From the NCBI GenBank assembly GCA_963816145.1, contig CAWFJP010000031.1, positions 96,001 to 160,000 on the forward strand: a stretch of 64,000 bases of DNA. The letters are read 5' to 3'. The first letter of the stretch is position 1. Every line of letters begins with the position of its first letter. Under the pieces are notes generated by a model that saw only the letters and a list, made by a program, of their open reading frames with translations, was not told where the DNA came from and searched no databases. Positions 43,100 through 58,449 of this stretch are shown piece by piece. This stretch comes from an uncultured delta proteobacterium (GTDB taxonomy: Bacteria; Desulfobacterota; Binatia; UBA9968). The position numbers and the translations under genes were made by a program.

Positions 43100-43294
43100 A
43101 GAATGAGGGTCTATCTCCGTCGGACCGACCCCGATGCTCGGCGAACCCTTAGACTGCCAGGGTAGTCGAGATGTAAAAATCAGACTATCTTGAATTTCCC
43201 TTTGGCGTGAAGCATCGATCTCGCCGGCCGCTAACTGGCGCGCGTCTCGGGTGTCAATCCATGCCCGATCGCTGTTATTGTATATACGTAATCG

Positions 43295-43582
43295 ATGTTC
43301 GACCGGGATCTGCGAAAGGCCCGGAGTAACCGGCGCAAGCACGGCGTATCGCTCGACGAGGCCGCCACGGCAGTCCTTGATCCGTACGGCATGGACGGTG
43401 AAGATTTGGATTCCTCGGCTTCCGAACTCCGCCGGTTGCGCCTAGCCAAAAGCAGCATGGGTAGAGTGCTGCTCGTAGCGGATACGATAAGGAGTAAAGA
43501 CGATGAAGAAACGACGCGGATCATCAGCGCGCGGCGCGCGAGCCGGAAAGAACGCAAGCGGTATGAAGCCGAAGACAATTGA
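43295..43582 (+). CDS. brnT: BrnT family toxin (possibly decaying)
   Basis: K..SNRRKHGVSLDEA..RIISARRASRKERKRYE; the usual Trp of FEWD is Arg here. Confidence 0.85.
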   Translation: MFDRDLRKARSNRRKHGVSLDEAATAVLDPYGMDGEDLDSSASELRRLRLAKSSMGRVLLVADTIRSKDDEETTRIISARRASRKERKRYEAEDN

Positions 43583-43796
43583 TTTTTCCGATATTCCCGA
43601 ATTGACCGACCGTCAGCTATCGTCCATGCGGCGGGTCGGCAGACCGACTATGGGTGACGAGCCGAGGAAGCTCATCGCGATTCGTTTGGACGCAAAGGTA
43701 TTGGCTTGGTTGCGCAAGACTGCCGCGAAAAAAGGGCTGCCGTATCAGTCGCTCGTGAACGAGATTTTGGCGAGTGAGATGCGCAAGGCGAGTTAG
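43563..43796 (+). CDS. brnA: BrnA family antitoxin, copy 1
   Basis: IDFSDIPEL, GRP, IAIRLD..VL, YQSLVNEIL. Confidence 0.9.
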   Translation: MKPKTIDFSDIPELTDRQLSSMRRVGRPTMGDEPRKLIAIRLDAKVLAWLRKTAAKKGLPYQSLVNEILASEMRKAS

Positions 43797-43864
43797 GACT
43801 GAGTGAGGCGAACAAAAAATATCGAGTCAAGCATCTTGACTGCTACGACACTAGACCTGACCCC
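43791..43864 (+). repeat. TA-array repeat R1
   Basis: AGTTAGGACTGAGTGAGGCGAACAAAAAATAT..GCATCTTGACTGCTACGACACTAGACCTGACCCC. Confidence 0.92.
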
Positions 43865-44006
43865 GTGCGCGATACAAGCTGAGTCCCTCGACATCAGCGT
43901 GCTCGGACGCGATATAACGAGTCTCTTTGCAGCGATTGTCGATCGTCCCGGCGATGTTGTGGCGTTGCTAGGGCAACGTCATCGCTATCGCATCGAGCAG
44001 ATCTGA
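43865..44006 (+). pseudogene. orphan gene tail (retropepsin-like LGRD motif)
   Basis: SLDISVLGRDITSLFAAIVDRPGDVVALLGQRHRYRIEQI*, starting right after R1. Confidence 0.5.
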
Positions 44007-54017: not shown

Positions 54018-54052
54018 CACGGCGGCGGTTTGAAGTACGGCCGAGAAATTTG

Positions 54053-56063
54053 TCACAGAGCTGTGATGCCTACTTCGGTAAGAAAGTTGAAAGTTGAATC
54101 GTAAAACTCAGGTGATCGAGTCGGATCACTCGGCTCACCCGGCGGCACAAAGATTATCATTCCTTGCCGAGCGCGAGTAAGCAGGACTCGATAAGCGTTA
54201 AGTAGGTAACGTCGGTTGTCGAGATTGCCGATATTGATCCATCGATCACCGCGAAAGTCATGATAGCTCCAGCCGGATCCGGTGAAACGCAGGTCGCCGT
54301 CCCAAGTCACACAGGTCCAATCCAATTCCAAGCCCTGCACCTGAAACTCTGTCGCGGCATCTTCGAGATAGTAGCTTGATCGCGTGTCTTCTTTGTCGTT
54401 GAGAAACCAATGCACCGGGTCAACGTCCACTCGAATATCAATCGCGTGAGGTTTGAGGCGTTGCGCTTTCGACGAGGCGACTAATCCGAATCGCTCAGTT
54501 CCCCTGGCATGGGAGCGAATCCATTGCTTAGCCCGATTCAAGTCGCGGGTAACAGCGACGGGATAACGATCGGCCAGTTGTATGAAGGCGTCTCGCGCCG
54601 ATCGTTTTTCGCAGTCCAGCAGCGCTTTGACAAACGCCGACACGTTTTCAGCGCGGAACGATCTCATCGACACGGCGAGATGCAAGCAGTCGTCAAAGTG
54701 AGTATTCGGCCGCTGGCGAATGACTTCTAAGACTTTGCCAGCGGCATATTCGGTATCGGTGAGTCTCGATGAAATATGCATGTGCCATTGCGGGAATCTC
54801 GAATTCACAGCGTCAAGCCACGCATCGATTCCGGCTTCGCCTATATGGATTTCCTGTCCACCTCCGACAAGGCAAACAATGACGGCCCATTCGGTGTGGC
54901 GATCCATGCACGAAATCAGGAACTCCGGCTCGGAGTCGGAGAACCCTGGCCGATTCTTTCTTCGCTTCATGAAATTCGCGGTTTGTCGCAAGTTCCAAGC
55001 GCGTTGGGCTTCGTCAAAGATCACAACATGTTCGGCCGGAGGGCCGGAGTCGACCAATGCCTCGTCGCGAAAGTTATGAACATTCTGGATGAAAGCTTTG
55101 ACGCTCTCGCCAACTTTGCCCTTCCGTACTCGAACGCCAAGTTCCTTCTGACGTGCGACCTCATCGCGGGTCAGCGCCTCACGGAGCACAGCCACGAGCG
55201 GACCGTTCCCCGAAAGAAACACGGCGTGTGTCGGTTGGTTGACGTCCCGGCGTCGAGTTGCAACATTCAGCCCAACTAGGGTTTTGCCAGCTCCTGGAAC
55301 ACCTGTAACAAAGCAGATGAGTTTGCGCCTTTGATCTCTTGCCTCATCGACGAGTTCTTCAATGCGGGATGATGTGACGCGCAGATTCTGCGCTCCCGCA
55401 TCGTAACGGGCGATCGCTTCAACCGAATGTTGCGCATAGAGAGCGCGTGCGGCCTCGATAATCGTGGGCGTGGGACGATACGGAGCGTTCGGCCATTGTT
55501 GGTTGTCGATGACTGCGCCGGTTACAGTTCGCAATGCTAGGTCAATGGCGTGGCGAAAACCGGCGGGATGCACGTTAATAGGGTGATAGACCTTGTCGGC
55601 GTCGGCGTGAAGTGTCAATTCAGCGGATTCACTGGCTTCGGTAGCGATGAGAATCGGCACGATCGAAGCAGTATGGCTCGCTTCGTGAAAATTCTTCAGG
55701 TCTAACGCATAATCCCAAACTTGATCCGTCGCCGCGCGGTCAAAATTGCTTTCACCAATTTTGAACTCAATCACGAATACGACAGGGCCGACGACCAGTA
55801 CCGCATCTATCCGCCGGCCCATCCGCGGGATGTTGAACTCCAAAAACAACGCGCCGGTTAAACCGGCGAGCTGCTCTTGCAGGAAGCCGATCTCTGCCAA
55901 CCAGGCGTCCTTCTGAGTCGGCAAGCAAAGAAAACTCGCTGTTTGTTGCCAGTCGTCCGACAATTGTATCTGGTTGGGTTTGTAAAAAATCGGCAATGGA
56001 AGACGAGTACCAGGCTCGGGAGGATACTGATGTTGTCGCCGGTAGTTCGGGCGGTGCATCCAT
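54053..56063 (-). CDS. DUF2075 (Schlafen group 3-like) nuclease-helicase; frameshift near 55925
   Basis: N-terminus RAWYSSSIADFL (ORF 55767-56063); nuclease-like RRIDAV..VIEFK; Walker A GVPGAGKT; FDEAQR; QGLELD; NAYRVLLTRARQG. Confidence 0.9.
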
Positions 56064-58144
56064 ATTCGCGATGATGCCAAGAAAGTTTGTTGAAGTGAAG
56101 CACGAATTGTTTGCACTTCGTTGCGGTTCTCACCGCTGTGGATGAATAATGTGCAATCGGATAGTAGCACCACGCGCGGTTTGGCCCGGTGTTTTCAGTT
56201 GTTTAGATGTCCAGGCACGACCCCGCAGTCGTCACATTAGCAGAGGCCGTTGGAAGCCGGCGGCCAGTCTGTTTTCGCTACAGGGAGCTTGTTAAAGTAG
56301 GAGAGTACGCTTGAGAGGCTGAGAGCATAACAAATAAGCCAAGCTGACAAGCCTGGCACCGGCTGTCACGACAAGGGTTGTCCGTCAGGCAACCCAACGT
56401 ACCGCCCGTTCTGTTGGCGGTGCAGGTAGTTGCCTGTCCTTACGCGGCCACAAAATGATTGCACATTCGTCGTATAATCATTCTCGCATTCCAGGTACTT
56501 GACTTGGATATCGTAGAATTATCATTAGTTCAGGGAGAGGTGTCCCAATGACCGATATAGGGTCAAGGCAGGTCGAGGTCGTGATTCTGCTGAAAAACCC
56601 GGTTGATTTATTGTGTCGTGGGATGGCGGGTATCGTTGAAGATTTGTCGCCACTCTTTATGTGATGTATGCGCGTCGACGTTTGGATCACAGGACAAATT
56701 CTCACCCAGTAATCATGTGGGAGTTGTTCGCCTGTGGACCGATACGGCTGTTTCGGGAAAGATCCTCCCCCAGCTCTTAACGCTTCGATCACAGTTAGAG
56801 ACGTTTTCTCGAGTGCAACGGGGGCCGGCGATCGATCCTGTTGCCGGAGTGACGCTTTTGCAGTTCATGGAGAAGGCATCGAACGGCGACCGCTGGCAAG
56901 TGGCCTATCTCTGGGCAGGAAGTACGACTGGACTTGGAGCTTCCCTATGAAGGGTTTCACCGACGGCAGCGGCTCCTTTGCGACGTTGGCGAGAAAAAGG
57001 CCGGCGGGTCATCTTATGACGGGCATAAGCATTCGAATCGAACCAGGACCGAGGGAGGCGAGCAGGCAAAACAGCGGCACATACGGGCTTAATCTCGGGC
57101 TGTTACAGAGATGAGCCGGTTGGAATGGCGGAGGAGACGTTGCGCTTGGCGCTAGAGGGTTGGCCGGAGTTCGACGGCGTGCGACAGAGTTCTGGGCCGC
57201 GATGTGGTCTTGTACCCCAGATCAGGGACGAAACGGCTAAGAAAGCCGAACCGTCATCGCCACCCACGCAATGGTGATCGATCGCTCGAAGTCTGGAATG
57301 GATCGCCAAGGTATCGCCCACGTACATTGCGTTGTATTCGACCAAACTCAAGCGAGAGCAGTTGGCGAATCGGAATAATGCCGTTCAACAGAAAGTTCTC
57401 CGGTCGCAATCGCTCGCAGGGAAGGACCTGTCCTGGCAATTCATCGAAAGAGATTGCACGGATGGTACGGTCGATGTGGTGAGAGGTTGAGGCCAGCTAG
57501 CCGGGAGATATTTCTGAGCTCCTGTGACACGCTTTTTGATCGTTGGTGGATCATTGATCCGGAGAACGCAAATCAACCCGGTGTATGCGGTTCACAACGC
57601 AATGGACGGCGATATGATGACGCTCAAAAATTTTTGTCAGGCCGTAGTGCCGAGGACCCCGCAAACGACCTGGAGAGCAAGCATGGAGCTCTGGGGCCAC
57701 TCTCCCGATTTCGCTTCACGGGTCGTACATTACGGCTTGATACCGACCCTGTCGAGACGGCCCCGATTTGTTGGCCTTTCCGCCGGCAAATGAACTCCTC
57801 GCCATAGATTGCACGACTGGGACTTCCTAACGAAAACAACGAGCGTCTGCAAACTCATCAGCCGAGCAGAACGAGTACGAGCAGCCCTGCAGGGCTCTGG
57901 CCATTCGTACATTGACATACTTCCCGATCTGATTGTGAACGACCTCGACCGAGAAGTGCCATTCAGCGGGACGATGTACCGAGACGGCCAGGCCACGGAC
58001 GTGGCCGTCGCGGCAAGGGAAGAGATAGACAGTTTGGTGGGTCGCGCCAGGAGTCCGCCCTTCGCCATTCGCAGGGTGTTTTCTGAAGCAAAAGCGATTA
58101 TTAAGATGGCTAGCATCGAGGCTTAGCTGATTCTCCAAGCAAGA

Positions 58145-58199
58145 GGGTCAGGGTCAAGGGTCAGGTCTAGTGTCGTACCATCTGCAGTGCAAGCGTCAG
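58145..58199 (-). repeat. inverted partial copy of the TA-array repeat end (R7) with stuttered GGGTCA
   Basis: GGGTCAGGGTCAAGGGTCAGGTCTAGTGTCGTA..AGCGTCAG; reverse complement CTGACGCT..TACGACACTAGACCTGACCC. Confidence 0.88.
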
Positions 58200-58449
58200 G
58201 CATGAGTATTGAGTTATTCAAGTTGACCACACGTCAATCCGCTTCCAGGTCTTTCAATTTAAACAATCGTCCAGCTTTTATCTCGCTCTCAATTCCACAA
58301 CTTTTTGCTCGCGGCCGCGACGCTCTCATGCAGGACGCGTAACTTCGCCCACGCGACCTGCGGGTGCACTCCCCGCCTAGGGAAACGCTGCCAATCTATT
58401 TCCGCACCCCGCTAAAGTCAGAATTGTTCTTTCGAAGAACAGCGCGTCA

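Follow-up and report, generated by a model that had tools for sequence, protein, structure and literature searches.

We analysed the window, a 64,000-nt stretch of contig C31 from a genome of the class Binatia (G000), in which seven type II toxin–antitoxin (TA) pairs are interleaved with copies of a short repeat. Judging by its sequence, the repeat very likely consists of a lineage-specific tail, often with a decayed higA gene, whose last 24 nt are a solo right-end terminal inverted repeat (TIR) of the TIRYT/TIRtron class. The island is pieced together from modules whose right end is fixed at ...GACC(CC), whereas their left end is variable and often truncates a gene. The explanation we prefer, at a probability of roughly 45%, is that modules were added head to tail at TIR ends through a TIRYT working in trans; a patchwork built passively by recombination is a serious contender. 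Throughout, other G numbers denote relatives, C numbers contigs, L numbers individual loci or contigs, and X numbers runs.

The repeat ends in a probable TIRYT terminal inverted repeat

The last 24 nt of the repeat read TGCTACGAYnCTAGACCyGACCCC. Across 42 distinct instances (two of which, L007 and L013, come from the unpublished genome G005), the information is confined to exactly 24 positions and is zero on either flank. The flanks vary independently, some copies having the same left and a different right flank and others the reverse. A pattern for the repeat's end was found in 9 of 61 relatives and, class-wide, in 13 of 401 genomes, nearly all from two families of one order; G005 also contributed rows to the scan of relatives, the flank comparison and the synteny search, and none of our claims depends on it; the reversed control gave 0 in both cases. 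An exact scan of the genomes of 185,579 species yielded 69 stretches with the core, mostly from Beta- and Gammaproteobacteria and including records of Mariprofundus PV-1 and of Candidatus Binatia, the window's lineage. The 24-nt end is carried by Binatia and by Beta-, Gamma- and Zetaproteobacteria.

At six public loci, a single open reading frame (ORF) is enclosed by inverted copies of the core, 899–922 nt apart. The two enclosed ORFs that we examined encode Y1 proteins of 278 and 287 aa with a helix-turn-helix (HTH) tail, and both pass the NCBIfam model REP_Tyr_transpos (94 and 87.7 bits; cut-off 80). When we collected the 111 ORFs lying at most 350 nt from the motif at the 69 public loci, Y1_Tnp was the commonest family (11 ORFs); HTH_23 was found in 4 and HTH_28 in 2. 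The exact motif also lies upstream of RAYT-like Y1 genes in G156, a relative from the window's own family, and in the betaproteobacterial locus L093 it forms the 24-nt TIRs of four elements of 200–245 nt. The array of these TIR-bounded elements (L093, 2940–3110) stops directly at two tRNA-like genes, and a TIRYT gene follows 1.6 kb on.

The product of a TIRYT/TIRtron gene is a Y1 HUH transposase that resembles RAYTs and has an HTH at its C terminus; the TIRs of these genes have the consensus GGGGWSAS (Di Nocera et al. 2013, PMC3733652); the class is subclass 2.1 of TnpA_REP (Quentin et al. 2018, PMC6006769). The reverse complement of our core begins GGGGTCAG and fits this consensus. Inverted copies on the two flanks of a gene, the arrangement that characterizes TIRYT TIRs, were found in other genomes, not within the window. 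The earlier note on this DNA, made from the letters alone, had proposed a candidate new cassette system; the repeat itself is a site of a known type, since TIRs of the TIRYT/TIRtron class are already in print. The same note's statement that such motifs border some Y1/HUH genes was correct, because the core belongs to this class and flanks RAYT-like Y1 genes in proteobacterial records and in G156. In the parts of PMC3733652 and PMC6006769 available to us, TIR copies are already on record as single, dimeric and grouped, no activity or role is demonstrated for TIRYTs, and a binding and cleavage assay is proposed and none reported.

The resemblance to published TIRtrons/TIRYTs, as far as the available parts of these papers describe them, extends from the RAYT-related Y1 HUH protein with its C-terminal Bac_DnaA_C/HTH_23/HTH_28-like domain and the GGGGWSAS-type TIRs to the low-to-moderate copy number, the single, paired or grouped copies, and a patchy spread that suggests horizontal transfer. 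Unlike those described there, the array copies are right ends standing alone, all in the same orientation and stacked over ~15 kb; a lineage-specific tail and cargo (TA pairs, a hydrolase–PrpD pair) are joined to every copy, and module junctions and stutters lie at GACC(CC). REP/REPIN–RAYT systems share with our loci an HUH Y1 enzyme that is related (REP_Tyr_transpos recognizes the proteobacterial proteins), a gene flanked by cognate repeats and, in L093, inverted doublets of ~200–245 nt. Unlike theirs, our repeat lacks a GTAG-tagged hairpin and has ~10 copies per genome, not hundreds, and its profile matches at E<1e-6 are confined to the window array, not dispersed.

The core might alternatively be a regulatory motif, either an outward promoter of the extended −10 type (TGcTACGAT) or a sequence bound by some other DNA-binding factor, kept for the expression of the downstream gene. 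Its consensus does hold TGnTAnnAT-like letters, a same-strand ORF lies 40–320 nt downstream of 6 of the 7 window copies, and every G156 copy precedes a gene. However, the best-conserved part is the 14 nt after the '−10', the window copies read TACGAC, and a promoter scan flags none of them (9 sites versus 7.4 expected). The TA operons have promoter-like sites of their own, the motif occurs in inverted pairs around transposase genes, and no RNA run was found to contain the locus. We consider a regulatory role improbable.

Copies of the repeat in the window and the genome

The earlier note had listed six same-orientation copies and one inverted copy, and the repeat search finds them: six plus-strand copies, alignable over up to 73 nt, and a seventh that is inverted (arm 58158–58180; Table 1). 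In the profile scan that the note had proposed, a 66-nt nhmmer profile searched against the 7.8-Mb genome reached E<1e-6 nowhere but at the six window copies; E was 0.14 for the inverted copy and 0.25 for two sites on C17. The pattern of the repeat's end has six matches in the genome. The 12-mer AGACCTGACCCC, with at most one mismatch, occurs 4 times versus 0.22 expected, and none of 100 shuffles gave 4. The shorter GGGGTCAGG has 25 occurrences in the genome, under the mean of composition-matched 9-mers, and sequences related to it are likewise not over-represented.

Three sequences of the left-end type, each different from the others, are stacked where the array ends on the right (58157, 58190 and 58245). 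Contigs of two runs (X3 and X4) join ~58353–58361 back to 58150–58153 with 3–5 foreign letters between; this joint, which goes back ~205–211 nt within 58150–58360, may reflect a ~205-nt element, beginning with the inverted TIR, that is present either in tandem or as a circle.

The array resembles an integron cassette array in its same-orientation units of cargo plus one site, its richness in TA genes and its content that varies between strains. Given its cassette-like spacing, it could be an attC cluster without an integrase (CALIN), served by the genome's two distant integron integrases. Two intI genes do exist on C15 (C15:184057–185001 and C15:202187–203131; TIGR02249 468 and 466 bits, cut-off 265), and a loose attC regular expression matches three times in the higA remnants; we judged these three matches to be chance because nothing in them pairs beyond AAC/GTT. 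However, the C15 cassettes have canonical CCTAAC...GTTAGGC attC sites, whereas the window repeat has neither attC core (RYYYAAC...GTTRRRY) and no consensus hairpin, and the intI genes lie on a different contig. An RNAalifold consensus of the six copies contained 4 pairs at −2 kcal/mol with zero compensatory change, and an Rfam scan of 42000–60000 at E<=1 gave no match. Unlike integron cassettes, the units have promoter-like sites of their own (promoter scan) and may begin inside truncated genes. An integron-type origin is hardly credible on these grounds, and the earlier note's statement that integrase, attC, CRISPR and intact transposase are missing from the window holds: PF00589, PF01797 and TIGR02249 have zero matches on C31, and no CRISPR-like spaced repeats were found in the window. 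On C15 itself (C15:183001–203131; L034, L035), a run of a 9-nt GTTCAA-type tandem repeat adjoins each intI.

Module ends stop at GACC(CC)

Within the R family of repeat copies, the end is constant at GACC(CC) while the alignable left part measures 50, ~80 or ~250 nt. The three copies of the R3-type tail all diverge directly after GGTCCGACC(C/G)(C/G), and the copy at the lowest coordinates is the probable left edge of the patchwork. A hydrolase–PrpD unit in G018 is 98% identical to that of G000, and the homology ceases exactly after GGTCCGACCCC at 51187. Across the array, 3 of 10 repeat families end within −1 to +4 nt of a [CT]GACC site, for which 2.4% of positions qualify (P=0.0015, with the tolerance chosen post hoc); without the R family, 2 of 9 do (P=0.019). 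Left ends have cut brnT, higA, the C10 gene and ORF 6779–8149, and in L162/L163 an XRE gene is cut mid-way right after an R end.

We also observed a stutter of the form 'flank + GACCC'. A second GACCC lies at most 60 nt outside 60 of 154 TIR ends versus 21 of 154 inside, with G005 omitted from the count; the reverse-complement control gave 6 outside and 17 inside.

IS91 and ISCR elements transpose by a rolling circle with one constant and one variable end, capturing neighbouring genes next to the constant end; they use HUH proteins of the Rep-like, two-tyrosine kind, and their ends are of the ori/ter type. The array's constant end and variable other end (50 to ~250 nt, with genes cut) look like their one-ended products in pattern only, and the array ends, unlike those of IS91/ISCR, are unrelated to ori/ter.

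Two side observations concern these ends. A terminator-like hairpin site (47623–47637) directly follows the R2-type tail. At the position where the array's gene fragment from C10 has AAA (K), the native gene (C10:87027–87400), the source of that 3' end, has TAA in frame (..RYN*EAG..).

Different TIR subtypes follow orthologous genes in relatives

The TA array of G004 contains three copies of a higA-tail repeat ending AGCGGACTTGACCCCTTT; over 18 nt, this ending agrees fully with the right end of the TIRYT gene that G004 itself carries. In G014, the orthologous higA tail ends in a third TIR subtype. After the orthologous brnA, G000 has the R repeat, and G002 and the metagenome variant X3 have a C29-type end. 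The left end of a TIRYT in G041 has 13 nt in common with the core, and the same genome carries a similar array in the order HicB-like, motif, ParE–Phd, motif. In G156, three motifs are spaced 779 and 904 nt apart.

Three long Y1 genes reside in G000, each encoding Y1_Tnp plus a Bac_DnaA_C-like domain. They are flanked by inverted repeats GGGGTCAG.../...TGACCC, which they share with ~15 homologues (in G003, G004, G014, G019 and G041), and this genome's Y1 proteins fall under the RAYT cut-off (65.8 versus 80 bits).

At C29:1255–2500 (L037) and G156:C7:1–520 (L159), a 5' fragment of a TIRYT gene is followed by a complete copy of that gene, which has a left end to itself; these are nested or tandem truncated copies. 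At four G041 loci (L012, L018, L067 and L082), a repeated element starting TATGCCGCGGAAGCAGTGCAACTTGCC adjoins TIR-type ends, four different ones in all, with the junction exactly after ...GACC. The element contains a 175-aa ORF without a Pfam match and may insert specifically at TIRYT ends.

Strain variation and assembly support

Repeats break short-read assemblies, and the contigs of several relatives stop at the motif, so that an assembly chimera has to be weighed. However, independent contigs bridge the junctions: the JGI contigs L160 and L161 cover 50473–53391 at 94.7% and 48455–50727 at 97.8%, and Logan contigs from four independent soil or wetland runs cover 44223–44686, 48414–49381, 50956–51782 and 53606–54121. 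We conclude that the array is not a chimera because these contigs span the local junctions. Near-identical sequence is present in runs from 19 studies. Tn3 inverted repeats begin with GGGG, and relics of such ends would be another source of the motif. However, the Tn3 transposase family PF01526 has 0 matches across the whole genome, and only 24 nt are conserved versus 38 bp in Tn3 inverted repeats. We regard both a chimera and Tn3 relics as extremely improbable. The four-run contigs leave 57242–57808 uncovered and have low depth over 53.8–57.2 kb; neither was taken as evidence.

The population contigs differ from G000 in several ways. One joint of run X3 (43816->44312) lacks the module between the repeat copies R0 and R1, and another (43794->47678) links brnA via 28 other letters to the RelE module. 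L161 is without R2–RelE–Phd (~47490 to ~48447), and L162/L163 carry hybrid higA/brnA tails. Directly past the R end at 48560 there is an insert of 27–31 nt that differs between G000 and L161, and then homology resumes. Two further joints (X1, 50414->59118; X4, 45256->55344) were set aside owing to short sides or unknown inserts. The earlier note had expected strain differences by whole units with breaks at GACCCC. Both expectations are borne out in part: the X3 joints and the L161–L163 variants are in keeping with whole units, and homology between genomes and between paralogues stops at ...GACC(CC), but the L161 indel has its breakpoints elsewhere. The search for an empty site met flanks that are not collinear in relatives, and G002:C919 and G006:C290 showed no empty site.

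Accretion by a TIRYT versus passive recombination

We propose that a TIRYT acting in trans would nick a single strand directly 3' of ...GACC(CC). Upstream DNA, of no fixed length, would be copied or moved along with that end and joined immediately 3' of another right end. Repetition of these steps would produce modules of cargo plus one right end, head to tail in a single orientation, with left ends that vary and often truncate genes. TA pairs would stay as cargo because they are resistant to loss, and later homologous recombination between the tails would have reshuffled and homogenized the modules. We infer cargo mobilization by a TIRYT, and the earlier note's 'cassette system' has the same standing; that note's HUH idea has gained support. 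Probably, the array in this genome is a decaying relic, because its seven copies have diverged, no partner left ends exist beyond the stack at 58157–58270 and no TIRYT has a matching TIR.

The contending explanation is that TIR-type sequences, either solo ends or what is left of small TIR elements, were seeded or inherited on the 3' side of TA and higA genes in a permissive TA island, and that duplication together with homologous or illegitimate recombination between the common tails then built and reshuffled the array without any movement of cargo by a TIRYT. The tails are alike over up to 250 nt (86.5% identity between 48315–48559 and 52050–52293), the X3 joint 43816->44312 is the expected product of recombination between R0 and R1, and the hybrid tails of L162/L163 fit as well. 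So do the single, dimeric and grouped TIR copies recorded in the available parts of PMC3733652 and PMC6006769. However, passive recombination leaves unexplained why GACC is the common stopping point of repeat families that are unrelated and of the stray gene fragment of 141 nt, why differing TIR subtypes follow orthologous brnA and higA genes (G000, G002, X3, G004 and G014), and why the stutter lies outside the TIR ends. Were it true, the locus would be a TA island of the ordinary sort in which repeats of a known type happen to lie.

Several observations count against accretion by a TIRYT, and some of them equally favour passive recombination. First, the enzyme: the genome has 7 PF01797 matches, none of them on C31 or C17, and the TIRs of the three long Y1 genes (GGGGTCAGGCCTGAGTATTGAC, GGGTCAAATCTTTAC and GGGGTCTGAC) do not match the array TIR, which leaves the genome without a cognate TIRYT. 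The array cores differ mutually by several substitutions, and the mode of recognition used by IS200/REP elements is inapplicable because the repeat has no hairpin and no covariation. Second, the neighbours: HTH_3 occurs in just 2 of the 111 motif-adjacent ORFs, and the motif stands beside transposases and ordinary genes in Proteobacteria and before a nitrilase operon in G156. Of the two kinds of neighbour whose enrichment the earlier note had suggested testing, Y1_Tnp is the commonest family beside the motif, and TA genes are not enriched at the 69 public loci. Third, the joints: the higA remnants at 48314 and 52046 have the same deletion junction, GGCGA|CCTG, relative to the intact G014 gene, and therefore homologous recombination or duplication also acts in the island. 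The L161 breakpoints lie away from TIR ends, and the other end of the G018 match is uninformative because the match ends where the G018 contig ends. Finally, the population evidence consists of contigs, not reads; among these contigs no circular junction of a cargo module, of the kind the earlier note had envisaged, was seen, and the sole joints that go back are those at the ~205-nt stretch 58150–58360.

If accretion is right, the locus and its relatives resemble natural reaction products, with a junction after GACC/GACCCC, a fixed-right, variable-left polarity and stacks of TA and defence genes, and they point to a candidate integrase-free route for assembling TA and defence islands in soil bacteria. 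A wider claim, that TIRYTs are not inert 'domesticated' relics but the engine of a third cassette-array route beside integrons and ISCR, with an end that crosses phyla, we consider doubtful. We found no description of TIRYT ends punctuating TA arrays in the literature; Figure 9 and Additional file 5 of PMC3733652, of which only part was available to us, may list the TIR itself.

Layout and gene content of the array

Pfam confirms the seven full-length TA pairs of the earlier note, every one of them on the plus strand, between 43295 and 53319 (Table 1). That note had left out the truncated brnT–brnA copy, the higA remnants, the minus-strand genes and the further repeat families ending GACC(CC). 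Three decayed higA genes (44036–44288, 48314–48478 and 52046–52212) are each fused to a repeat copy, and the minus-strand genes within the array, an alpha/beta hydrolase, an MmgE/PrpD protein and a Schlafen-type helicase, are not TA genes.

Table 1. Coordinates of modules, genes and repeat copies in the TA array of the window
Feature	Position	Strand	Remarks
R3-type tail	41532–41640	+	Ends GGTCCGACCGC; blastn matches to 51080–51188 and C18:104949–105055
BrnT toxin; BrnA antitoxin	43295–43582; 43503–43796	+	PF04365 3.7e-16; PF14384 9.3e-11
Repeat copy R0	43790–43864	+	38-nt core from 43831; 24-nt TIR core 43841–43864; lacks 15 nt of tail
Frameshifted higA-like pseudogene	44036–44288	+	78% identity with window 19283–19458; intact orthologue in G014:C9
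Repeat copy R1	44291–44371	+	38-nt core from 44338; 24-nt core 44348–44371, diverged: GACGTGATCCC
TacA-like antitoxin; GNAT toxin	44529–44837; 44838–45368	+	PF08681 2.7e-25; GNAT families
5'-truncated brnT + brnA copy	45439–45725, tail to 45790	+	Tail ends CTCCTGACCCC; 95% identity with 43524–43810
Fragment from 3' end of ORF 6779–8149	45800–45870 (approximate)	+	Ends CTTGACCC; compared with window 7960–8200
MazE/AbrB antitoxin; PIN toxin	45948–46211; 46198–46578	+	Pfam
Gp49/HigB-like toxin; XRE antitoxin	46815–47156; 47149–47472	+	Pfam
R2-type tail	47502–47622	+	Ends GATGCGACCCC; copies in G019, G004 and G003 loci and at C31:192334–192418
ParE/RelE toxin; Phd antitoxin	47772–48065; 48062–48310	+	Pfam; 92% identity with G004:C9
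Internally deleted higA remnant + repeat copy	48314–48560	+	38-nt core from 48527; 24-nt core 48537–48560
Alpha/beta hydrolase; MmgE/PrpD	48616–49329; 49358–50710	-	98% identity with G018:C18
R3-type tail	51080–51187	+	Ends GGTCCGACCCC; G018 homology stops exactly at end
Solo 50-nt repeat copy	51198–51247	+	38-nt core from 51213; 24-nt core 51223–51246; end decayed to CCCGGCGCC
Gp49/HigB-like toxin; XRE antitoxin	51293–51694; 51691–52032	+	90% identity with G014:C9
Internally deleted higA remnant + repeat copy	52046–52294	+	38-nt core from 52261; 24-nt core 52271–52294
141-nt copy of gene 3' end from C10:87027–87167	52301–52440	+	Homology ends ...GCCTGACC
AF2212/DUF104 antitoxin; PIN toxin	52518–52820; 52783–53319	+	Pfam
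Repeat copy	53591–53670	+	38-nt core from 53637; 24-nt core 53647–53670
87-aa ORF	from 53754	+	No family match; between last plus-strand copy and inverted copy
Schlafen-group-3-type helicase	54053–56173	-	PF09848 1.6e-79; between last plus-strand copy and inverted copy
Inverted 24-nt core	58157–58180	-	Preceded by GGGTCA stutter AGAGGGTCAGGGTCAAGGGTCAGG
Second left-end-type TIR	58190–58216	+	22/27 nt match to left end of C29 TIRYT gene (GGGTCAGGCCTGAGTATTGACTTAATG)
Third repeat family	58245–58381	+	Further copies at C31:161345, 163019 and 200935

Some of these genes have relatives elsewhere in the window. A paralogue of the MazE-AbrB/PIN (AbrB–VapC) pair lies at 8117–8851 (87%), directly after the 456-aa ORF 6779–8149, and fragments of the 3' end of that ORF stand on both flanks of the array copy (~45800–45870 and ~46640–46720). 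A longer higA-like copy outside the array (19172–19458) has 78–91% identity with the remnants and is apparently frameshifted near its start.

On C17 (C17:75900–84000, L001), a VapB/VapC pair lies between two 99%-identical genes for F420H2-dependent quinone reductases, and the 24-nt motif follows each of these two genes. The neighbours, a cNMP-binding–TIR protein (TIR here being part of the protein's name), a nucleotide cyclase and an E1/E2-like (ThiF/UQ_con) protein, suggest a cyclic-nucleotide defence system. Finally, 50735–50910 of the window is a dispersed repeat resembling a miniature inverted-repeat transposable element, with inverted ends GTTGAAAAGCC...GGCCTTTTTCAAC and many copies in nearly all genomes of the genus; contig depth over it peaks at 250–330 in two runs.

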